DNA of 64,000 bases from a phage: the sequence record PZ862964.1, one strand, 5' to 3'. The notes beneath the pieces were generated by a model. That model was not told where the DNA came from. It saw nothing but the letters and a program-made list of their open reading frames with translations, and did no database searches. Every line of letters starts with the position of its first letter. Positions within the stretch are counted from its first letter, which is position 1. The position numbers and the translations under genes are program-made. Of the stretch, positions 3,440 through 49,155 are shown one piece after another.

Positions 3440-3469
3440 GTTTACATACCACAAGGACCGTGGTACTAT
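3440..3469 (+). promoter_or_regulatory. early-type promoter
   Basis: GTTTAC, 18-nt spacer, TACTAT; shares TTTTCACAAAACGGTTTACA and GGTACTATACAACTATC blocks with three other loci. Confidence 0.55.
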
Positions 3470-3496
3470 ACAACTATCAGCTACGGAGGAGTAAAA

Positions 3497-3945: not shown

Positions 3946-3975
3946 GTTTACAAGACTGTTCCTCTGTGGTACTAT
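3946..3975 (+). promoter_or_regulatory. early-type promoter nested in inverted repeat
   Basis: GTTTAC, 18 nt, TACTAT; arms CTGTTCCTC (3956-3964) and GAGGAACAG (3992-4000), the latter containing the SD. Confidence 0.55.
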
Positions 3976-4003
3976 ACAACTATCAACTACGGAGGAACAG
4001 AAA

Positions 4004-4117
4004 ATGAAAAAGATTGTTAAAGCTATATGGAATGTAGTTATAATACTAATAGTTTTGAGTATATTCCCAATCGTTTTAATGATTGATGTATTAAACGTTT
4101 ACTTTGGATTTATGTGA
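4004..4117 (+). CDS. hypothetical 37-aa membrane peptide
   Basis: ATG after SD GGAGGA (3991-3996); the longer ORF-track version crosses the promoter and is unlikely. Confidence 0.5.
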   Translation: MKKIVKAIWNVVIILIVLSIFPIVLMIDVLNVYFGFM

Positions 4118-7084: not shown

Positions 7085-7114
7085 GTTTACAACCAAAGCA
7101 TACTGTGGTACTAT
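7085..7114 (+). promoter_or_regulatory. early-type promoter upstream of motA
   Basis: GTTTAC, 18 nt, TACTAT; flanks near-identical to the cassette at 24216-24285. Confidence 0.6.
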
Positions 7115-7155
7115 ACAACTATCAACTACTGATACAGAATTACGGAGATTAGAAA

Positions 7156-20945: not shown

Positions 20946-20975
20946 GTTTACTTTAAGATTTGGATGGTATATAAT
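20946..20975 (+). promoter_or_regulatory. early-type promoter for rnh operon
   Basis: GTTTAC, spacer, TGGTATATAAT; divergent from the gene 34 late promoter. Confidence 0.55.
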
Positions 20976-21004
20976 AGAAATCTCACTAATTGAACGAGGT
21001 TCAT

Positions 21005-21922
21005 ATGGATTTAGAAATGATGCTGGATGAAGATTACAAAGAAGGAATTTGCTTAATTGACTTTAGTCAAATTGCGCTTTCAACTGCTTTAGTAAACTTC
21101 CCAGATAAAGAAAAAATTAATTTATCAATGGTTCGTCATTTGATATTGAACTCAATTAAGTTTAATGTCAAAAAAGCAAAAACGCTTGGATACACTAAAA
21201 TTGTACTGTGTATTGATAACGCGAAATCTGGATACTGGCGTCGTGATTTCGCGTATTATTACAAGAAAAACCGTGGAAAAGCACGAGAAGAATCTACTTG
21301 GGACTGGGAAGGTTATTTTGAATCCAGTCATAAAGTTATAGATGAATTGAAAGCTTATATGCCATACATCGTTATGGATATTGATAAGTATGAAGCAGAT
21401 GACCATATTGCTGTTTTGGTTAAAAAGTTCTCTTTAGAAGGACATAAGATTTTAATCATTTCGTCGGATGGTGACTTTACTCAACTTCACAAATACCCAA
21501 ATGTTAAGCAATGGTCACCGATGCACAAGAAATGGGTTAAAATTAAAAGCGGTTCTGCTGAAATTGACTGTATGACTAAAATCCTTAAAGGTGACAAAAA
21601 GGATAACGTTGCTTCAGTTAAAGTACGATCTGACTTCTGGTTTACCAGAGTTGAAGGTGAACGAACTCCTTCAATGAAAACTTCAATCGTTGAAGCTATT
21701 GCTAATGACCGTGAGCAAGCTAAGGTGCTTCTCACTGAATCTGAATATAATCGATATAAAGAAAATTTAGTTCTAATTGATTTTGATTATATTCCTGATA
21801 ATATTGCTTCAAACATTGTGAATTACTATAATTCATATAAATTACCACCGCGTGGCAAAATTTATTCATATTTTGTAAAAGCGGGTCTTTCTAAATTAAC
21901 TAATAGCATTAATGAATTTTGA
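21005..21922 (+). CDS. rnh: RNase H (5'-3' exonuclease)
   Basis: 305-aa ORF from MDLEMMLDEDYKEG after SD GAGG; agrees with recalled T4 RNase H; ORF-track start 20990 is TTG. Confidence 0.9.
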   Translation: MDLEMMLDEDYKEGICLIDFSQIALSTALVNFPDKEKINLSMVRHLILNSIKFNVKKAKTLGYTKIVLCIDNAKSGYWRRDFAYYYKKNRGKAREESTWDWEGYFESSHKVIDELKAYMPYIVMDIDKYEADDHIAVLVKKFSLEGHKILIISSDGDFTQLHKYPNVKQWSPMHKKWVKIKSGSAEIDCMTKILKGDKKDNVASVKVRSDFWFTRVEGERTPSMKTSIVEAIANDREQAKVLLTESEYNRYKENLVLIDFDYIPDNIASNIVNYYNSYKLPPRGKIYSYFVKAGLSKLTNSINEF

Positions 21923-24246: not shown

Positions 24247-24276
24247 GTTTACATCCTTGTCCTTCCATGGTACTAT
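24247..24276 (+). promoter_or_regulatory. early-type promoter
   Basis: GTTTAC, 18 nt, TACTAT; flanks near-identical to the motA cassette. Confidence 0.6.
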
Positions 24277-24319
24277 ACAACTATCGGCAATACTGCTGAT
24301 GATTAAAGAGGAAAATAAT

Positions 24320-24550
24320 ATGGCTAAAGTTGATATTGACATCGTTGATTTTGAATATATCGAAGAAATTATTCGTAATCGTTATCCTGAACTTAGTATC
24401 ACAAGTATTCACGATGATCCCAATTATTGTAATTTTTCTATTGTCATTGAAGGTCCTCTTGAAGACCTCACCCGCTTTATGGCTAATGAATACTGTGATG
24501 GCATGGATTCTGAAGACGCAGAATTTTACATGGGATTGATTGAACAATAA
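24320..24550 (+). CDS. hypothetical acidic protein (76 aa)
   Basis: ATG after SD AAAGAGGAAAA; strongly acidic; ORF-track start 24257 crosses the promoter. Confidence 0.55.
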
Positions 24551-24594: not shown

Positions 24595-24960
24595 ATGTAT
24601 ATCGGCAAAAAGTATGAACTTGTTCCAAGACTTATTGATACATTTATTAATTATCGCCCACGTTCTAATTCATCAATAGTTAAAATTATTCAAGAAAATG
24701 GAGGATGGTTTGAAGTTAAAGAAGCTTTCTTTGTTGATGGATTTAGAGTAATAAAACACATTGAATGCGCAAATGGAAAGCATTTTTACTTTAACGTTTG
24801 TGAAGACGAATTTCATTGTTTTCGTGAGTATAAAGAACCGACTTCTGAAGAAGATGAAGTCAAAGACGAGGTTTATGGCGTAACAAAAATTCACTGCATT
24901 GTTGACGAAAACAATGTAGATGAAATCATTGAACTTTTGCGAAAAACTTTCAAAAAGTAG
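24595..24960 (+). CDS. hypothetical protein (121 aa)
   Basis: ORF with SD GAGGAAAACGTAATG. Confidence 0.55.
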   Translation: MYIGKKYELVPRLIDTFINYRPRSNSSIVKIIQENGGWFEVKEAFFVDGFRVIKHIECANGKHFYFNVCEDEFHCFREYKEPTSEEDEVKDEVYGVTKIHCIVDENNVDEIIELLRKTFKK

Positions 24961-24989
24961 TTTACAGAAGGGTAGTAGTGTGATACTAT
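24960..24989 (+). promoter_or_regulatory. early-type promoter nested in inverted repeat
   Basis: GTTTAC, 18 nt, TACTAT; arms GGGTA (24970-24974) and TACCC (24990-24994). Confidence 0.45.
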
Positions 24990-25019
24990 TACCCTATCAA
25001 AACTAATGGAGAAAAGAAA

Positions 25020-25088
25020 ATGTTCGCACCTTATATTATGGCAGCAGTTATGTTGGTCTGTTTATATCTTTTGATTAAAGCTTGCTAA
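25020..25088 (+). CDS. hypothetical 22-aa hydrophobic peptide
   Basis: MFAPYIMAAVMLVCLYLLIKAC after SD GGAG and an early-type promoter; weak evidence. Confidence 0.3.
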   Translation: MFAPYIMAAVMLVCLYLLIKAC

Positions 25089-26522: not shown

Positions 26523-26541
26523 AATAACGCGTGGCGGAAAT

Positions 26542-26889
26542 ATGAATTTTAATTATTACCCTATTCTATTAGAAAAAGACGTGAAACAACCTAAATGGCA
26601 GGGTCCTCAGTTTATTAAAGGCGTCTATCAATTAGTAGTTCCTAAAGACAAAATTTATAGCAGTTGTTTCACTGAATCCGCTTGCAGTATTTTCGGTAAT
26701 AGTTCTTCGTATTGGAATTTTGACATAAAGCTGGATAGAAATATCGATATTTGGTTGAAAGCTATGGATATTGGTAATATCACGTTTGATGAGAATAATT
26801 ATCATATTATTGGTCGCTTTTCCAAACGCGGTAAAGAATTATATTTCACGCCTGAAATTGAAAGAAAATTTGATGCTAAACCGTATTGA
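26542..26889 (+). CDS. hypothetical protein (115 aa), orphan ORF inserted between frd and td
   Basis: ORF in a ~410-bp segment separating frd and td; no recognisable nuclease or other motif. Confidence 0.5.
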   Translation: MNFNYYPILLEKDVKQPKWQGPQFIKGVYQLVVPKDKIYSSCFTESACSIFGNSSSYWNFDIKLDRNIDIWLKAMDIGNITFDENNYHIIGRFSKRGKELYFTPEIERKFDAKPY

Positions 26890-26934
26890 TTATTCAGCTT
26901 CATAAAATGTATTATAATTTATATAAGGTACTAA

Positions 26935-27795
26935 ATGAAACAATACCAAGATTTAATTAAAGACATTTTTGAAAATGGCTATGAAACCGATGACCGAACA
27001 GGCACAGGAACAATTGCTTTGTTCGGTACTAAATTACGCTGGGATTTAACTAAAGGTTTTCCTGCAGTAACAACTAAGAAGCTCGCCTGGAATGCATGTA
27101 TTGCTGAGCTTCTATGGTTTATTTCCGGTTCTACCAATGTTAATGATTTACGTCTTCGCACTCATGGCAGTCTTATTCAAGGTAAAACTATTTGGGACGA
27201 TAACTATGAAAACCAGGCTAAAGACCTAGGATATCATAGTGGTGAACTTGGTCCTATATACGGTAAACAATGGCGTGATTTCGGTGGTGTGGATCAATTA
27301 GTTGAAACTATTGATCGTATTAAAAAATTACCAACTGATCGACGTCAAATCGTTTCAGCATGGAATCCAGCTGAAATCAATCAAATGGCATTACCGCCCT
27401 GTCATATGTTCTATCAGTTTAATGTGCGTAATGGTTATCTTGATTTACAATGGTACCAAAGAAGTGTAGATGTTTTCTTGGGCTTGCCATTCAACATTGC
27501 CTCGTACGCTGCCTTGACGCATATTGTGGCTAAGATGTGTAATCTTATCCCAGGAGATTTGATATTTTCCGGTGGTAATACTCACATCTATATGAATCAT
27601 ACTGAGCAATGTAAAGAAATTTTACGTCGTGAGCCTAAAGAACTGTGTGAACTTAAAATTGATTGGCCTATAGAGTTTGGAAATTGTGACACCGAAACGC
27701 AGCTTTACTGGTTAACTGAATACATGAAACCGAAAGATTTTATCCTTGAAAATTATGAATCGCATCCAGCAATTAAAGGGAAAATGGCAATATGA
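26935..27795 (+). CDS. td: thymidylate synthase (uninterrupted, no intron)
   Basis: Continuous 286-aa ORF with TS active-site motif LPPCH and N-terminus [15 protein letters not shown]. Confidence 0.95.
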
Positions 27796-28335: not shown

Positions 28336-30590
28336 TTAATGTTATCAAAAGTAGTGGTGTTTCTCAGAGCTTTGACCCGCAAAAAATTATTAAAGTTTTA
28401 TCTTGGGCAGCTGAAGGAACATCAGTAGATCCTTATGAATTATATGAAAACATTAAATCTTATCTCCGTGATGGAATGACAACTGATGATATTCAGACTA
28501 TTGTCATTAAGGCCGCTGCGAATTCTATTTCGGTTGAAGAACCTGATTATCAATATGTAGCTGCACGCTGTTTAATGTTCGCTCTTCGTAAGCATGTTTA
28601 TGGGCAGTATGAACCACGTTCATTTATTGACCATATTTCTTACTGTGTAAATGCAGGTAAATACGACCCTGAATTATTGTCAAAATATTCAGCAGAAGAA
28701 ATTACATTTTTAGAATCAAAAATTAAGCACGAACGGGATATGGAATTTACTTATTCCGGGGCGATGCAATTAAAAGAAAAATATCTAGTTAAAGATAAAA
28801 CCACTGGTCAAATTTATGAAACTCCACAGTTTGCATTTATGGCTATTGGAATGGCATTGCATCAAGATGAACCTGTTGATAGATTAAAACATGTTATTCG
28901 TTTTTATGAAGCAGTATCTACTCGACAGATTTCATTGCCAACTCCTATTATGGCTGGTTGCCGTACTCCGACTCGACAGTTTAGTTCATGCGTTGTTATT
29001 GAAGCTGGTGATTCATTGAAGTCAATTAATAAAGCTTCTGCTTCAATTGTTGAATATATTTCTAAACGCGCTGGAATTGGAATTAACGTTGGTATGATTC
29101 GTGCCGAAGGTTCTAAGATTGGCACTGGTGAAGTACGTCATACTGGTGTTATTCCTTTTTGGAAACATTTTCAGACTGCAGTTAAATCATGTTCACAGGG
29201 TGGAATTCGTGGCGGCGCTGCTACTGCTTATTATCCTATTTGGCATTTGGAAGTTGAAAATCTTCTCGTTTTGAAAAATAACAAAGGCGTAGAAGAAAAC
29301 CGCATTCGTCATATGGATTATGGTGTTCAGCTGAATGATTTGATGATGGAACGTTTTGGAAAGAACGATTACATTACTTTGTTCAGTCCACATGAAATGG
29401 GTGGAGAGCTTTATTATTCTTATTTTAAAGACCAAGACCGTTTCCGTGAATTATACGAAGCAGCAGAAAAAGACCCTAATATTCGCAAAAAGCGTATTAA
29501 AGCCCGTGAACTATTTGAATTGCTCATGACTGAACGTTCAGGAACAGCAAGGATTTATGTACAGTTCATTGATAATACGAATAACTATACTCCATTTATT
29601 CGTGAAAAGGCACCTATTCGTCAGAGCAACTTGTGCTGTGAAATTGCTATTCCAACAAATGATGTGAATAGCCCCGATGCTGAAATTGGATTGTGTACTC
29701 TCTCTGCATTCGTACTGGATAATTTTGACTGGCAAGACCAAGATAAAATTAATGAATTGGCAGAAGTCCAAGTTCGTGCTCTTGATAATCTTTTGGATTA
29801 CCAAGGATATCCAGTTCCTGAAGCAGAAAAAGCTAAAAAGCGTCGTAACCTCGGTGTAGGTGTTACCAACTATGCAGCTTGGCTGGCAAGTAACTTTGCT
29901 TCTTATGAAGATGCTAACGATTTAACACATGAACTATTTGAGAGATTACAGTATGGACTCATTAAAGCATCCATTAAGCTCGCCAAAGAAAAAGGACCTT
30001 GCGAATATTATTCAGACACTCGTTGGTCTCGAGGCGAATTACCTATCGACTGGTACAATAAAAAGATTGACCAAATCGCAGCTCCAAAATACGTTTGTGA
30101 CTGGTCGTCGCTGCGGGAAGACCTTAAGCTCTTTGGCATCCGTAATAGCACATTATCAGCACTTATGCCATGTGAGTCATCTTCCCAAGTTTCTAACAGT
30201 ACAAACGGTATCGAGCCTCCACGTGGACCAGTCTCTGTTAAAGAATCAAAAGAGGGCTCCTTTAATCAAGTCGTGCCCAATATTGAGCATAACATAGACC
30301 TCTATGATTATACATGGAAATTAGCTAAGAAAGGTAATAAACCTTATCTTACGCAGGTAGCTATTATGCTGAAATGGGTATGTCAATCAGCTTCAGCGAA
30401 TACATACTATGACCCGCAGATTTTTCCAAAAGGAAAGGTTCCAATGTCAATAATGATTGATGACATGCTATACGGATGGTATTATGGCATTAAAAACTTC
30501 TATTATCATAATACCCGCGATGGTTCTGGTACTGATGATTATGAAATAGAAACTCCAAAAGCTGAAGATTGTTCATCCTGTAAATTATGA
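28326..30590 (+). CDS. nrdA: ribonucleotide reductase large subunit NrdA
   Basis: 754-aa ORF, same size as recalled T4 NrdA; class I RNR features. Confidence 0.95.
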   Translation: MQLINVIKSSGVSQSFDPQKIIKVLSWAAEGTSVDPYELYENIKSYLRDGMTTDDIQTIVIKAAANSISVEEPDYQYVAARCLMFALRKHVYGQYEPRSFIDHISYCVNAGKYDPELLSKYSAEEITFLESKIKHERDMEFTYSGAMQLKEKYLVKDKTTGQIYETPQFAFMAIGMALHQDEPVDRLKHVIRFYEAVSTRQISLPTPIMAGCRTPTRQFSSCVVIEAGDSLKSINKASASIVEYISKRAGIGINVGMIRAEGSKIGTGEVRHTGVIPFWKHFQTAVKSCSQGGIRGGAATAYYPIWHLEVENLLVLKNNKGVEENRIRHMDYGVQLNDLMMERFGKNDYITLFSPHEMGGELYYSYFKDQDRFRELYEAAEKDPNIRKKRIKARELFELLMTERSGTARIYVQFIDNTNNYTPFIREKAPIRQSNLCCEIAIPTNDVNSPDAEIGLCTLSAFVLDNFDWQDQDKINELAEVQVRALDNLLDYQGYPVPEAEKAKKRRNLGVGVTNYAAWLASNFASYEDANDLTHELFERLQYGLIKASIKLAKEKGPCEYYSDTRWSRGELPIDWYNKKIDQIAAPKYVCDWSSLREDLKLFGIRNSTLSALMPCESSSQVSNSTNGIEPPRGPVSVKESKEGSFNQVVPNIEHNIDLYDYTWKLAKKGNKPYLTQVAIMLKWVCQSASANTYYDPQIFPKGKVPMSIMIDDMLYGWYYGIKNFYYHNTRDGSGTDDYEIETPKAEDCSSCKL

Positions 30591-30641
30591 TATAATTTGA
30601 CTCATGGACGAGTCACCAACTATTAACTAAGCGGAAAATTT

Positions 30642-31820
30642 ATGAGCACAGTTTTTAATACAAATCCAGTTGATGTTTTAAAAGAACCTATGTTTTTTGG
30701 TTCAGGTCTTGGTATTGCGCGTTATGATATTCAACGGCATCGAGTATTTGAAGAACTTACAGAGAAGTCCTTATCATTTTTCTGGCGTCCCGAAGAAGTA
30801 AACTTGATGATGGATGCTGCACAGTTTAATAAGCTTCCTCAGTATCAGCAAAATATTTTTACTAATAATCTGAAGTATCAATCACTTTTGGATAGCATTC
30901 AGGGTCGTGCGCCGTCTGCTGTACTTATGTCATTAATTTCAGACCCAAGCCTTGATACATGGGTTGCTACGTGGACTTTTAGTGAAACTATTCACAGCCG
31001 TTCATATACACATATCATGCGAAATCTTTATACTGATCCATCGAAGGTATTTGATGAGATTGTATTAGATGAAGCTATTATGAAACGTGCTGAATCCATT
31101 GGGCGTTATTATGATGATGTTCTGATTAAAACCCGTGAATGGGAAAATGCTAAAGAATTTGTAGAACTAGCTAAAGAATCTCCTGATGCTGTCTTTCGTT
31201 TAAACCGAGCTATTAAACAAGAAGCCGAAGCTAAACGTGCTTTAATGAAATCTCTTTACCTCTGTTTGCATGTAATCAACGCATTGGAAGCTATTCGTTT
31301 TTATGTATCTTTCGCATGTACCTTTAACTTCCATAAAAACATGGAAATCATGGAAGGTAATGCCAAAATTATGAAGTTCATTGCACGTGATGAGCAGCTT
31401 CACCTTAAAGGCACTCAATATATTATTCGTCAACTTCAATCTGGTACTGATGGCGATGAATGGGTTAAAATTGCTCAAGAGTGTGAACAAGAAGCAGTTG
31501 ATATTTTCATGGAAGTTAACCGCCAAGAAAAAGATTGGGCAGTTCATTTATTTAAAGACGGCGATGTTCCTGGATTAAATACAAATAGCATGTGGAGCTT
31601 TATTGATTACTTAACTGTATCTCGTATGAAACAGTGTGGTCTTCCATGCCCAATTACCGATGCTCCGGTTAAACATCCGTATCCTTGGATTCGTGAATAT
31701 CTTAATTCTGATAATGTTCAATCCGCGCCACAAGAAGTAGAACTGTCATCTTATCTTGTAGCACAGATTGATAATGATGTTGATGATAAAGTTATGATGA
31801 GTTTTAAAAAATATTTTTAA
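30642..31820 (+). CDS. nrdB: ribonucleotide reductase small subunit NrdB (uninterrupted, no intron)
   Basis: Continuous 392-aa ORF with di-iron E..H motifs (SETIHSRSY; ARDEQLH). Confidence 0.95.
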   Translation: MSTVFNTNPVDVLKEPMFFGSGLGIARYDIQRHRVFEELTEKSLSFFWRPEEVNLMMDAAQFNKLPQYQQNIFTNNLKYQSLLDSIQGRAPSAVLMSLISDPSLDTWVATWTFSETIHSRSYTHIMRNLYTDPSKVFDEIVLDEAIMKRAESIGRYYDDVLIKTREWENAKEFVELAKESPDAVFRLNRAIKQEAEAKRALMKSLYLCLHVINALEAIRFYVSFACTFNFHKNMEIMEGNAKIMKFIARDEQLHLKGTQYIIRQLQSGTDGDEWVKIAQECEQEAVDIFMEVNRQEKDWAVHLFKDGDVPGLNTNSMWSFIDYLTVSRMKQCGLPCPITDAPVKHPYPWIREYLNSDNVQSAPQEVELSSYLVAQIDNDVDDKVMMSFKKYF

Positions 31821-31850: not shown

Positions 31851-33435
<1,585 letters not shown>

Positions 33436-33438
33436 GCT

Positions 33439-33499
33439 GTTTACAAGTCCCTCGTGTTGTGTTATAGTAGTCTTACTGACACAACATGAGGACTTTATG
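33439..33499 (+). promoter_or_regulatory. promoter/stem-loop cassette upstream of alc (copy 1 of 2)
   Basis: GTTTAC, 18 nt, TATAGT; 13-bp arms 33450-33462 and 33479-33491 enclose the -10 and pair with SD GAGGA. Confidence 0.6.
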
Positions 33500-36745: not shown

Positions 36746-36775
36746 GTTTACTTTACGGTAGAGTTGTGATATTAT
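36746..36775 (+). promoter_or_regulatory. early-type promoter nested in inverted repeat
   Basis: GTTTAC, 18 nt, TATTAT; arms GGTAGAG (36757-36763) and CTCTACC (36778-36784). Confidence 0.5.
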
Positions 36776-36805
36776 AGCTCTACCAAAACAAATGAGGAAA
36801 TTGAA

Positions 36806-37333
36806 ATGAGCGAATGGTTTGAAGAAGATAAGGTTTATCGCTTTAAAACTGGGTATAAAGATATTTTTAATGAAACTTGCGGGGCTAATAAACGAATTGC
36901 CCAGTTTATTGGGGAAAATTCATTTAAAGTAAAAATAGATCCTGCGAAGAATGTTATTAGCATTAAACGCGAAATTGATGACTGCTGGTATAAAGCTATT
37001 GATGTAATGGGCGAATCCTATAAAGATAGCCCGTTATTTTCAATTGCTTATATGTTAGAATATTCTTTTTTCGAAGAAGTTCAAAAAGATGATTCTGTCA
37101 GTAAATTTGAAATTAAAGCTGATAAAGAAATTAAGTGGAAAGTAGTAGGTATTACTGGTTGTATGTTTTATATCTATGCTCAAACTGATACGAAGGAAGA
37201 AGCTAAAAAGAAAGCTCTAGAATATCTTGAAGAGCATGAAGAAGGTCCGGTAATGATTACTCAAGATGCTGAATTAGTTTCTGTCAAATTAGTTAAAAAT
37301 GTTGAAAGTAAGGAGCTGGGATCAACATGCTAA
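36806..37333 (+). CDS. hypothetical protein (175 aa)
   Basis: ORF with SD GAGGAAATTGAAATG downstream of an early-type promoter. Confidence 0.55.
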   Translation: MSEWFEEDKVYRFKTGYKDIFNETCGANKRIAQFIGENSFKVKIDPAKNVISIKREIDDCWYKAIDVMGESYKDSPLFSIAYMLEYSFFEEVQKDDSVSKFEIKADKEIKWKVVGITGCMFYIYAQTDTKEEAKKKALEYLEEHEEGPVMITQDAELVSVKLVKNVESKELGSTC

Positions 37334-39909: not shown

Positions 39910-40086
39910 ATGGCAAAACAAGTTAAAGCAAAGAAAGCAGTTGAAAAGAAAGTTGGTGATTCTAAACGCGCTGGTTACAAGCGTGGGTCGAACTCTCGTA
40001 TCAATCAAACTGTTGAGAAGATCATGCGCCGAGCACGTGCGGTTCTTCGAGATGATGCTTCTCGTTTTGGTAAGCAGAAAGCATAA
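39910..40086 (+). CDS. hypothetical basic protein (58 aa)
   Basis: ATG after AAGAGA; lysine/arginine rich; followed by strong terminator. Confidence 0.45.
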   Translation: MAKQVKAKKAVEKKVGDSKRAGYKRGSNSRINQTVEKIMRRARAVLRDDASRFGKQKA

Positions 40087-40090
40087 GTTG

Positions 40091-40116
40091 AGGACTCCTT
40101 CGGGAGTCCTTTTTTA
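40091..40116 (+). terminator. intrinsic terminator
   Basis: AGGACTCC-TTCG-GGAGTCCT followed by TTTTTTATTTT. Confidence 0.75.
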
Positions 40117-40139: not shown

Positions 40140-40169
40140 GTTTACAGTACGGTTCCTTTGTGATAGTAT
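40140..40169 (+). promoter_or_regulatory. early-type promoter
   Basis: GTTTAC, 18 nt, TAGTAT; imperfect flanking repeat CCTTTG / CAAAGG overlapping SD. Confidence 0.5.
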
Positions 40170-40196
40170 TATCTTACACAAACAAAGGAGAATAAA

Positions 40197-40531: not shown

Positions 40532-40560
40532 GTTTACTTTGGTACAAGATATGATATTAT
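40532..40560 (+). promoter_or_regulatory. early-type promoter nested in inverted repeat
   Basis: GTTTAC, 17 nt, TATTAT; arms GGTACAAG (40541-40548) and CTTGTACC (40564-40571). Confidence 0.5.
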
Positions 40561-40596
40561 ATACTTGTACCGCAATTAAACATCTTGGAGAATAAA

Positions 40597-47037: not shown

Positions 47038-49095
47038 ATGGAACTTATTACAGAATTATTTGACGGCGCTTCGGCGCCGGTTGTTAACTTAAATCCTAAG
47101 CATAAAATACCTCAAATTTTTGCTATTCAAGCCGGTGAAGAAAGTGTGCTTCCTGGATTTAGATTTTGTACATACACCTCTGGTGGTGATACAAATAAAA
47201 ACGTTAAGCCAGGCGATAAAATGATGCATATCGTAATGATAGGTGTCAACGAGAAATTATCGCTGGTTAAGCTTAGAAACTTGGGTGGAAATCCAATTGG
47301 CGTCATTAATGCTGTTTTTGATACTGCTCTTCAAACAATGAAGCAGTACAAAATTGACGCGTGCTTATTCCGTGTACTAAAGAGTAAAACAAATGGCGCA
47401 GCTCGTCAAATGCAAGTTATTGCTGACCGTTTAGTACGTACTAAAGGAGCAGGTCGATATGTTCTTTTAAAGGAAATCTGGGACTATGATAAAAAGTATG
47501 CATATATTATGGTTTACCGTAAAAATGCCAATTTAGAAGACATTCCAGGTGTACCTCCTATTTCAACTGAGTTATTCACAAAAGTTGAATCAAAGGTTGG
47601 TGATGTTTATGTAGACGTTAAAACAGGTAATGCTGTTCCTAAAGCTGTCGCTGTTGCTGCTTCTATTGCTTTAGAAAATGATAAGCGCACTGATCAAGCT
47701 GTTATTCAGAAAACTAAAATTAGTCGTCGATTAGCAGCACAAGCTCAATATTCTACTGTTGATGCTTCACTTCAGGGCGATAGCTTCGCTGCCAAGAAAT
47801 ATCAAGAGTTTGAATCTAAAGTTCCGGTATATAAAGCAGAAGGACCAATGAACTCTGGCGTTATCCAGATTGGTTCAAACTTCAGCAAAGGAGCTATCGG
47901 TGGTATGAGAAGTGCTTCTCGTTTTAAATCTAATGATTATGAACTAGAAAGTTTCCGAAATCATATTGCATTAGCTCATGCACGTTTACGCGATCCATCT
48001 ATCAAGCTGCAGAGCGATATAACATATCAAGGTTCTCAAGAATATTTAAAGAATAAAGAATTTTTTGATTATAAAACTGATAAAATTTTAAGCGATCTTG
48101 CTGACATTAATATTTCTAATAGCTTTGATGTTATTAAGAAAATTATCAATGATTTAGTTAAAGGTTCTAAAGCTACATCAGATGAAAAGACAGCTATTAT
48201 TCAATTTGTAATGAATGGCATTTATAAATTGATTAATGAATCTGCTGCTCAGGCATATGAATACGCAAGCACCGAAGTAACTCCAAAAGGATTAACTCAA
48301 GCTGAATCTGATGTAATTGAAGATTATTGTGCAGATTCATATGTTGAAATGAACTCGTTCCTTTTGGGTAAACCAGATTCTACCCGTGAAGAATATATGG
48401 AACGAGCTATTAAACATATTGAGACGCTGGATTCTGCATTCGCCAAAGGATCAGTTCTTCCTCCAGGAACTACACTTTACCGTGGACAAGAAGTTACCTT
48501 TAAAACTTTGCGTCATAACATTGAAAATAAAATGTTCTATTTCAAGAACTTCGTATCGACATCACTTAAACCAAATATCTTCGGTGAGCATGGTAAAAAC
48601 TATATGGCTCTAGATGATTCCGGCGCAGTATTTTCTGGCGAAGGAGAAGGTTCCGTTGATGCAGAAGATTTAATGCATATGGGTAGTCATTCTACATATG
48701 CCAATGAAGATGCTGAAACTAGCGTGGGTATGGTAATTAAAGGAGCTGAGCGAATCAAAGTTATCGTTCCAGGTCATTTATCAGGATTTCCATCAGAAGC
48801 TGAAGTTATTCTACCGCGTGGAATTTTACTGAAGATTAATAAAGTAAGTACGTACTTTATGAAAGAAACTGCTTATAACAAGTATCTAATCGAAGGTACA
48901 ATCGTTCCTCCTTCTGAACAATTAGAAGAATCAGTATATGATGGAGACCATCTAATGGAAACTGGTGAAGTTCGTCCAATGGCTGGATTTAATCAATTCC
49001 TTGTAGAAGAATCAAAAGAAGAGGAAAACGAAGTTTCTCAAATCTTAGCTTCTTTGGTTAACATCAACGGAATGTCTAAAAAGTTCAAGATGTAG
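47038..49095 (+). CDS. Alt-like ADP-ribosyltransferase (paralog 2)
   Basis: 685-aa ORF MELITELFDGASAPV; same N-terminal block and R-S-E motifs (LYRGQE, FVSTS, EAEVILPRG); divergent middle. Confidence 0.8.
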   Translation: MELITELFDGASAPVVNLNPKHKIPQIFAIQAGEESVLPGFRFCTYTSGGDTNKNVKPGDKMMHIVMIGVNEKLSLVKLRNLGGNPIGVINAVFDTALQTMKQYKIDACLFRVLKSKTNGAARQMQVIADRLVRTKGAGRYVLLKEIWDYDKKYAYIMVYRKNANLEDIPGVPPISTELFTKVESKVGDVYVDVKTGNAVPKAVAVAASIALENDKRTDQAVIQKTKISRRLAAQAQYSTVDASLQGDSFAAKKYQEFESKVPVYKAEGPMNSGVIQIGSNFSKGAIGGMRSASRFKSNDYELESFRNHIALAHARLRDPSIKLQSDITYQGSQEYLKNKEFFDYKTDKILSDLADINISNSFDVIKKIINDLVKGSKATSDEKTAIIQFVMNGIYKLINESAAQAYEYASTEVTPKGLTQAESDVIEDYCADSYVEMNSFLLGKPDSTREEYMERAIKHIETLDSAFAKGSVLPPGTTLYRGQEVTFKTLRHNIENKMFYFKNFVSTSLKPNIFGEHGKNYMALDDSGAVFSGEGEGSVDAEDLMHMGSHSTYANEDAETSVGMVIKGAERIKVIVPGHLSGFPSEAEVILPRGILLKINKVSTYFMKETAYNKYLIEGTIVPPSEQLEESVYDGDHLMETGEVRPMAGFNQFLVEESKEEENEVSQILASLVNINGMSKKFKM

Positions 49096-49155
49096 TTTAC
49101 AAGTTCCTTATGTTGTGTTATAGTAGTCTTACTGACATAACATGAGGAACACAAA
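49095..49155 (+). promoter_or_regulatory. promoter/stem-loop cassette (copy 2 of 2)
   Basis: GTTTAC, 18 nt, TATAGT; 13-bp arms 49106-49118 and 49135-49147 with compensatory changes relative to copy 1. Confidence 0.6.

Follow-up and report, generated by a model that had tools for sequence, protein, structure and literature searches.

Promoter-early stem-loop (PeSL) cassettes were defined in the phages RB49 and phi1, where they are repeated beside small genes of unknown function; they were suggested to serve as terminators and as sites of recombination (Arbiol et al. 2010, PMC2839356). The same paper terms the T-even elements analogues, not homologues, of PeSLs (PMC2839356), and in its account of Repoila et al. 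(1994) the analogous elements at T-even IP loci combine T4 early promoters with weaker, AT-rich stems. PeSLs were extended to PST/T4 by Comeau et al. (2014, PMC4122927), with promoters of the form TTTACW-N17-TAYWAT. Promoters within hairpins are also known from the T4 genes e, soc, 49 and I-TevI, whose long transcripts are untranslatable whereas transcripts from the promoter within the hairpin are translated; according to a 2010 review, all promoter-in-hairpin genes are late genes. Here, we analyze a stretch of 64,000 nucleotides of phage DNA (sequence record PZ862964.1; “the window” denotes this whole stretch), in which inverted repeats overlap seven early promoters of the T4 type (Pe), together with the early promoters of T4 itself. 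We confirm that hairpins occur at T4-type early promoters far beyond chance, and the evidence points to structure in the sense-strand RNA, not to a DNA operator.

The elements of the window resemble the PeSLs of RB49/phi1 in having a strong early promoter, AT-rich sequence upstream of it, a stem-loop (there mostly between -35 and -10 or overlapping the -10; PMC2839356), and a Shine-Dalgarno and ATG at the 3' end, as well as in being intergenic repeats by small unknown genes that coincide with insertion or replacement junctions between close relatives. They differ in their promoters, which are of the GTTTAC type here and follow a TTGACA/TATAAT consensus in RB49/phi1, and in their stems, which are AT-richer than the polyG/polyC stems of RB49 PeSLs, contain many G·U pairs and lack a U-tract. 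Half of the hairpins described here also include the Shine-Dalgarno, a point not made for RB49 PeSLs (PMC2839356). The PST/T4 PeSLs share phage group and promoter consensus with the window, and the cassette-exchange example given for them, the ndd.4/ndd.5 region, is the first locus treated below, that at 3946 (PMC4122927). However, their stem-loop is described as lying “just upstream of the promoter” in an AGNA-loop-TCNT form, which fits a terminator at 40090-40111 of the window but not arms that bracket the -10. Four of our loci (3946, 33439, 40140 and 49095) have a geometry identical to that of the e/soc/49/I-TevI hairpins, in which the 5' arm or loop has the promoter and the 3' arm the Shine-Dalgarno or AUG, while the remaining three (24960, 36746 and 40532) do not mask the Shine-Dalgarno in this way. 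Known cases of this type employ late (TATAAATA) or middle promoters and delay expression, whereas the promoters here are early and of the sigma-70 type; the predicted effect would be the reverse, with expression confined to the immediate-early burst. The architecture is thus already known from PeSL-like cassettes and T-even IP loci, and our results are an extension rather than a discovery. What may be under-appreciated is the spread of the architecture among T4 early promoters and the restriction to own-promoter transcripts, although the earlier T4 literature may hold a description of these as well.

Hairpins at early promoters of the window and of T4

The window belongs to a Tequatrovirus and shows ~95-97% identity with T4 (NC_000866) in a BLAST map that runs from ~168.9 kb of T4 down to 107.9 kb, i.e., in reverse orientation, so that T4 early transcription corresponds to the plus strand of the window. 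A megablast search with a 5-kb piece matched hundreds of T4-like phages, with 890 records in all and a top identity of 97.6%. Scanning for GTTTAC or one-mismatch variants, a spacer of 16-19 nucleotides (nt) and a TAnnnT hexamer yielded 12 convincing plus-strand promoters, at 3440, 3946, 7085, 9550, 20946, 24247, 24960, 33439, 36746, 40140, 40532 and 49095. In all of them the GTTTAC is exact, the upstream region is A/T-rich, and a Shine-Dalgarno and ATG follow; the remaining 14 plus-strand GTTTAC sites in the window were dropped because they had neither a -10 nor any promoter context. For seven of the promoters, a preliminary description had listed GTTTAC, a 17-18-nt spacer and a -10-like hexamer bracketed by inverted-repeat arms. 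All of these elements are in place. The seven loci fit the sequence definition of a T4-type early promoter (in sigma-70 numbering, TTTACA-N16/17 with a TG extended -10), and their arms are longer than first noted, forming stems of 9-20 base pairs (bp) and -12 to -26 kcal/mol, of which that at 40140 is marginal. Promoters and arms are located as follows (ORF, open reading frame; aa, amino acids).

3946..3975, plus strand: early promoter of the ndd.4 homologue; -35 GTTTAC 3946-3951, 18-nt spacer, -10 TACTAT 3970-3975, estimated transcription start ~3982
3956..3970, plus strand: 5' arm CTGTTCCTCTGTGGT of a 15-bp stem, in the promoter spacer and upstream of the estimated start
3986..4000, plus strand: 3' arm ACTACGGAGGAACAG, holding the Shine-Dalgarno GGAGG 3991-3995; ATG 4004, 37-aa ORF 4004-4117
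24960..24989, plus strand: early promoter, frd.1 region; -35 24960-24965, -10 TACTAT 24984-24989
24967..24980, plus strand: 5' arm, with core GGGTAGTAGTG at 24970-24980
24984..24998, plus strand: 3' arm, the -10 hexamer plus TACCCTATC; Shine-Dalgarno GGAG 25008-25011 and ATG 25020 beyond the stem
33439..33468, plus strand: early promoter of alc; -35 33439-33444, -10 TATAGT 33463-33468
33445..33463, plus strand: 5' arm AAGTCCCTCGTGTTGTGTT, one C bulged
33478..33495, plus strand: 3' arm ACACAACATGAGGACTT, holding the Shine-Dalgarno GAGG 33488-33491; ATG 33497
36746..36775, plus strand: early promoter of cd.2; -35 36746-36751, -10 TATTAT 36770-36775
36757..36768, plus strand: 5' arm GGTAGAGTTGTG, with core GGTAGAG at 36757-36763
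36773..36784, plus strand: 3' arm TATAGCTCTACC, with core CTCTACC at 36778-36784; Shine-Dalgarno GAGG 36794-36797 and ATG 36806 beyond the stem
40140..40169, plus strand: early promoter of 30.8; -35 40140-40145, -10 TAGTAT 40164-40169
40153..40161, plus strand: 5' arm TTCCTTTGT of the 30.8 hairpin
40182..40190, plus strand: 3' arm ACAAAGGAG, holding the Shine-Dalgarno AAGGAG; ATG 40197
40532..40560, plus strand: early promoter of 30.7; -35 40532-40537, 17-nt spacer, -10 TATTAT 40555-40560
40538..40553, plus strand: 5' arm, with core GGTACAAG at 40541-40548
40558..40575, plus strand: 3' arm, with core CTTGTACC at 40564-40571; Shine-Dalgarno GGAG 40587-40590 and ATG 40597 beyond the stem
49095..49124, plus strand: early promoter of alt.-3; -35 49095-49100, -10 TATAGT 49119-49124
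49103..49119, plus strand: 5' arm GTTCCTTATGTTGTGTT of the alt.-3 hairpin
49134..49150, plus strand: 3' arm ACATAACATGAGGAAC, holding the Shine-Dalgarno GAGG 49144-49147; ATG 49156

Their T4 equivalents are 166807 (ndd.4), 146143 (frd.1 region), 136336 (alc), 133331 (cd.2), 130310 (30.8), 129918 (30.7) and 123093 (alt.-3), and the cd.2 promoter is the counterpart of the annotated T4 early promoter Pe133295. Among the downstream genes, alc is the known one; ndd.4, the frd.1-region gene, cd.2, 30.7, 30.8 and alt.-3 are of unknown function.

We folded the segment from -35 to ATG of each promoter and compared its minimum free energy (MFE) with those of 200 dinucleotide shuffles. The most stable structures were found at 33439 (-26.3 kcal/mol, z -6.31), 49095 (-25.7, z -6.32) and 3946 (-23.2, z -6.32), the first two consisting of ~18 bp plus a small inner stem, followed by 40532 (-17.0, z -4.60), 24960 (-16.6, z -3.95) and 36746 (-16.3, z -4.19). 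None of the shuffles matched the observed energy at these six loci, while 4/200 were equally good at 40140 (-12.1, z -2.29). No significant hairpin was detected, again against 200 shuffles each, at 3440 (-9.0, z -0.48), 7085 (-6.3, z 0.30), 9550 (-5.3, z 1.10), 20946 (-5.6, z 0.79) or 24247 (-13.7, z -1.61). A duplex test, which pairs the spacer with the downstream region with -35 and -10 excluded and compares the result with shuffles, gave z -6 to -7 at three loci, p 0.003-0.006 at two, p 0.03 at 40140 and 0.06 at 24960; the last value is weak because the 3' arm there is the -10 hexamer, which the test excludes. Counting the paralogous cassettes 33439 and 49095 once, the window provides ~5-6 independent arm sequences. 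The placement of the -10 inside the loop, originally put forward for every locus, holds strictly at 3946, 33439, 49095 and 40140 and for the short cores of 36746 and 40532. In the extended stems of the latter two, the -10 is half loop and half stem, and at 24960 it constitutes the 3' arm, the loop being UGA.

For the whole assembled T4 genome, we considered the 36 exact GTTTAC promoters that have a downstream Shine-Dalgarno and ATG. A hairpin spanning the -10 was found at 17 of these at p <= 0.005, where ~0.2 would be expected, and two more were marginal. Assigned by position to the gene that each promoter precedes, the 17 are the following, with ipI and ipII among them.

166807: ndd.4
146143: frd.1 region
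136336: alc
133331: cd.2
129918: 30.7
123093: alt.-3
73939: ipI
70359: e.8
65799: ipII
65413: denV
62797: regB
57990: mobD.2
53943: nrdC.8 region
20612: dmd
15288: mrh.2
8218: dexA
7215: motB

When all T4 spacers were paired with all downstream regions, a promoter's own partner ranked first of 36 in 14 cases (permutation p < 1e-4), and the mean duplex energy was -12.5 kcal/mol for own and -7.8 for cross pairs. Cross-pairing keeps all consensus bases, and the promoter consensus is therefore not the source of the signal. An MFE of -15 kcal/mol or lower over the last 58 nt was reached by 15 of the 36 promoter-bearing gene starts versus 6 of 148 other T4 gene starts on the same strand (Fisher p 3.6e-8). 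These six structured controls include I-TevII, which is among the two most stable, and gene 49, both established late-promoter hairpins; others among them carry GC-rich, terminator-like stems. Outside T4, hairpins were present at 4 of 12 GTTTAC promoters in one Mosigvirus and at 2 of 3 in one Gaprivervirus, one being marginal (p 0.013).

Shuffles, own versus cross pairing and gene-start controls thus bear out the original impression that the arrangement is too regular to be chance. The contrary explanation, chance or an artefact of copied cassettes and of promoter consensus bases (TGTG before the -10), can draw on the paralogy of 33439 and 49095 and on a block TGGTACTATACAACTATC with a weak internal repeat, GTGGT..ACTAC, which 3440, 3946, 7085 and 24247 have in common. 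Yet the block-sharing promoters without a matching 3' arm (7085, 24247) are at background, cross-pairing averages -8 kcal/mol against -15 to -25 for significant own pairs, and such an account would have to cover 17 hairpins in T4 along with five or six mutually unrelated arm sequences in the window. Having found no support for it from shuffles or cross-pairing, we consider this explanation hardly credible.

Strand asymmetry and conservation of the stems

Inverted repeats centered on a promoter core might act in double-stranded DNA, as operators for a dimeric phage protein (e.g., in early-promoter shut-off, the mechanism of which is described in the literature as not fully understood) or as cruciforms. 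We analyzed stems detected by Watson-Crick pairs only, a strand-symmetric rule, and found that their internal mismatches were of the G·T type in 14 cases and of the A·C type in one (p 0.001). G·U pairs are acceptable in the sense RNA and correspond to A·C mismatches on the other strand, so this bias is unexpected for a duplex palindrome. The sense fold was also better than the antisense fold by a mean of 5.3 kcal/mol, in 16 of 18 cases, a comparison that is biased because the set was picked on sense-strand folding. Furthermore, arm sequences are unrelated between loci except for the paralogues, the arms differ by up to 10 nt in length and in their offset from the -10, and half of the early promoters have no repeat. 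An operator-like protein-binding site, one of the roles first proposed, is disfavored by the differing arms and the 14-to-1 mismatch ratio; we regard DNA-level action as very unlikely and rejected operators and cruciforms on strand asymmetry and arm diversity. The inverted repeats rather point to sense-strand RNA structure.

Comparison with relatives from GenBank phage records showed that substitutions in the stems preserve pairing, a further pointer to the sense-strand transcript. All three variable sites of the ndd.4 stem stay G-C or G·U, and its loop varies freely (ACAACTATCA, TACCCTATCA, TACTCTATCA) around a -10 of TACTAT or TATTAT. Seven core-stem pairs vary in the alc/alt.-3 family, each on one side, with a single sequence losing pairing at one of them. 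One A-U pair of the 30.7 stem of the window corresponds to G-C in nine other Tequatrovirus genomes and in one genome each of Mosigvirus and Gaprivervirus; a further change from A-U to U-A at the ninth pair of this stem in Mosigvirus involves a different register (bulged A in T4) and was not counted. Compensating differences distinguish the T4 paralogues 57990 and 20612 (GTTGACAAGATT/AATCTTGTCAAC and GCTGACAAGACT/AGTCTTGTCGGT). Across genera, the 30.7 and cd.2 promoter hairpins and frd.1-like cassettes persist in Mosigvirus, Gaprivervirus or both, the frd.1-like cassettes in differing arm sequence or register, with 5' arms GGGTAGTA, GATAGGG and GGTCTAT by genus and with 3' arms that differ to match. 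An IMG/VR search with the Alc protein returned only 5 near-identical loci, which were of no use for covariation.

Position of the Shine-Dalgarno and proposed mechanism

The loci divide by the position of the Shine-Dalgarno. At 3946, 33439, 40140 and 49095 (type a; four of seven) it lies inside the 3' arm, and its predicted probability of being unpaired in read-through versus own-promoter RNA is 0.00 vs 0.86, 0.01 vs 0.52, 0.02 vs 0.84 and 0.00 vs 0.02, respectively. At 24960, 36746 and 40532 (type b) it lies 9-13 nt past the stem and is predicted to be accessible, and the hairpins end near +1 to +12. The 5' arm is located within the promoter spacer, at times reaching into the -35, and ends at or before the -10. 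In an ORF scan, the upstream stop codon adjoined or overlapped the -35 at five of the seven loci: a stop TAG overlaps the G of GTTTAC at 24960 and, at the end of a 685-aa ORF, at 49095, and the stop codons of rnlA, cd.3 and 30.8 end at 33435, 36743 and 40529, ahead of 33439, 36746 and 40532. At five of seven loci, including all of type b, the hairpin starts 6-13 nt past the upstream stop codon. In T4, nine of 18 hairpins take in the Shine-Dalgarno, as read from the folds.

Two window promoters that have no significant hairpin also gave unequal predicted Shine-Dalgarno accessibilities in read-through and own-promoter RNA, namely 0.02 vs 0.72 for the rnh promoter (20946-21007) and 0.34 vs 0.97 for the frd.3 promoter (24247-24322).

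The reading that we favor, with somewhat better than even confidence, is that these are cassettes in which the promoter spacer also supplies the 5' arm of an RNA hairpin, and that they fall into two sub-types by Shine-Dalgarno position. The 3' arm would lie at or just past the transcription start. Judging from this geometry, RNA from the cassette's own promoter, starting ~7 nt past the -10, would lack the 5' arm and be unable to fold, whereas RNA from an upstream early or middle promoter would have both arms and fold; with the 5' arm upstream of the inferred start, only read-through transcripts can form the hairpin. In type a, read-through RNA would be poorly translated, and the gene would be expressed essentially only from its own immediate-early promoter. 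Its Shine-Dalgarno on read-through RNA would in addition be shielded from RegB, a nuclease that cuts single-stranded GGAG and is blocked by RNA structure, so that a paired GGAG would escape cleavage. In type b, the hairpin might be a 3' boundary structure of the upstream cistron, either an attenuator or an exonuclease barrier, or alternatively might hide the AU-rich promoter RNA from endonucleases. As the promoter and the ribosome-binding region take up the whole intercistronic space of only ~60 nt, an RNA structure there must overlap the promoter, and an AT-rich -10 would be tolerated in or beside the loop. The translational gating of read-through transcripts suggested at the outset therefore fits the anatomy of the four type a loci but not that of the three at which the Shine-Dalgarno is accessible.

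Several observations weigh against this reading or narrow it. The architecture is present at 6-7 of the 12 strong promoters of the window, and five have no hairpin. Gating cannot be the common function, since three of the seven loci leave the Shine-Dalgarno free, and the boundary role assigned to type b is a guess. At 49095, the Shine-Dalgarno is predicted to be paired in the own transcript as well (0.02), and transcription starts were placed from the position of the -10 only. The formal covariation count found no double changes in the alc/alt.-3 alignment and a single one in the 30.7 alignment (4 distinct sequences), which 134 of 500 shuffles equaled; these statistics have little strength, given the close similarity of the sampled genomes. 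We rely instead on the wobble-only pattern of substitutions, on strand asymmetry and on own versus cross pairing. The cd.2 stem of teqhad is weakened and not compensated, and the alc hairpin is absent in Mosigvirus, indicating that the Shine-Dalgarno-masking version is not deeply conserved.

A possible but less probable explanation takes the hairpins for PeSL-type terminators or attenuators, or for 3' exonuclease barriers, that stop or cap incoming transcripts and so insulate early cassettes, with Shine-Dalgarno masking being incidental. In its favor, they begin 6-13 nt after the upstream stop codon at five of seven loci, and intrinsic terminators are likewise stable hairpins just past stop codons; type b hairpins are moreover the ones conserved across genera, and an RB49 PeSL stem-loop cut downstream lacZ like a strong terminator (Arbiol et al. 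2010, PMC2839356). In contrast to intrinsic terminators, none of the seven hairpins has a U-tract after its 3' arm, the next bases being A-rich, and their loops of 3-16 nt contain promoter elements. A terminator scan flagged none of the seven. In their vicinity, only 40090-40111 and 40048-40064 qualified as intrinsic terminators, and the former, with its UUCG loop and T-run, shows what a real terminator looks like in this genome. For lack of U-tracts, we rejected intrinsic termination. As for a mere barrier, it would not need to take in the Shine-Dalgarno, as half of the T4 hairpins do.

The terminator at 40090-40111 is canonical, consisting of GAGGACTCC-TTCG-GGAGTCCTT followed by TTTTATTTTC, and lies past the stop codon of the preceding ORF (40086) and ahead of the 30.8 promoter.

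An RNA-level role could also lie in processing. The hairpins might direct RNase E, RNase G or a different endonuclease to the AU-rich RNA of the UP-element and -35 upstream, which we regard as improbable, and it is equally improbable in our view that polycistronic RNA is thereby cut into units like the own-promoter transcript. In T4 gene 32 mRNA, the classical context of RNase E is an AU-rich single-stranded stretch followed by a stem-loop, which the arrangement here resembles, and the sense-strand bias is compatible with processing. However, the reviews consulted describe RegB cuts at GGAG and specific RNase E sites but none at early promoters, and after a cut upstream of the hairpin, the Shine-Dalgarno of type a would still be masked.

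Under the favored reading, in which the spacer doubles as a hairpin arm, an RNA element overlaps half of the strongest promoters of a classic model phage and would decide the fate of transcripts arriving from upstream. If masking works as predicted, translation of several early genes would be limited to transcripts of their own promoter, discrepancies between RNA and protein timing of early and delayed-early genes could be explained, and the rule that a promoter within a hairpin is a late-gene device would need changing. We put forward only tentatively the wider proposition that about a quarter of T4-type early promoters make up an uncatalogued layer of transcript-specific translation, limited to the immediate-early phase, silent on read-through and middle-mode transcripts and with the GGAG shielded from RegB there. 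Its T4 members would, with the same reservation, be ndd.4, alc, alt.-3, 30.8, denV, regB, the nrdC.8 region, dexA and mrh.2; if true, nucleases and host shut-off proteins would have a hard-wired “immediate-early only” expression window, and the e/soc/49/I-TevI mechanism would extend to the early class. Anyone re-using T4 early cassettes or annotating T4-like genomes should expect spacer and 5' untranslated region (UTR) to be co-constrained.

Upstream of regB, the T4 promoter 62797 is located in a hairpin with an 11-bp core (CCTCTTGACTG/CAGTTAAGAGG, -22.4 kcal/mol, z -6.1), and the Shine-Dalgarno lies in the 3' arm. On read-through RNA, the gene for this GGAG-cutting nuclease would thus have its own GGAG masked.

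Cassette junctions and neighboring features

The features that define PeSLs recur in the window. Early promoter, stable stem-loop, Shine-Dalgarno and ATG occur together at six loci (z -3.9 to -6.3). Similar copies are repeated, as seen in the 33439/49095 pair and in shared blocks, and the locus at 3946 matches the T4 promoter 53943 in the nrdC.8 region. Insertion, deletion or replacement junctions between close relatives also coincide with the cassettes: a 520-bp gene follows the cd.2 promoter in the window and not in T4, different genes follow the frd.1 promoter in Shfl2, teqhad, EcNP1 and ELT1, with the break directly after the hairpin, and the sequence downstream of the 3440 promoter differs among phages. 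Like PeSLs, the repeated cassettes may therefore also mark recombination junctions between related phages.

The junction at cd.2 lies in the 5' UTR just before the ATG. A 175-aa ORF (36806-37333) directly follows the promoter and 5' UTR in the window, where the T4 alignment jumps from 133269 to 133267, and is also present in Shfl2, ZN18, EcNP1, teqhad, ELT1 and EO1; it appears to have been lost by T4, or gained by the others, at the cassette boundary. In T4, the promoter at 27080 (imm.1 region) has a 5' arm of the ndd.4 type, AAGACTGTTCTTCC, and a downstream region without a matching 3' arm, which has the appearance of a “half cassette” remaining from a recombination event. Downstream of the frd.1-region promoter, the first ORF (25020-25088) encodes a hydrophobic peptide of 22 aa, MFAPYIMAAVMLVCLYLLIKAC, and has a good GGAG Shine-Dalgarno; the same sequence exists in T4 (~146083-146015), where it is not annotated.

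No Rfam family matched at gathering score anywhere in the window, and Rfam likewise found no group I intron in it. The BLAST map skips the T4 td intron with I-TevI (T4 144565-143543; window 26527-27487) and the nrdB intron region (T4 139058-138457; window 30586-31318), and the phage appears from its sequence to be without the td and nrdB introns and without mobE.

The block TGGTACTATACAACTATC(A) noted above occupies 3464-3483, 3970-3989, 7109-7128 and 24271-24288 and comprises the -10 plus the first transcribed bases. The spacers of the four promoters that contain it are unrelated, and that of 24247 is wholly different between phages, which suggests recombination within the block.

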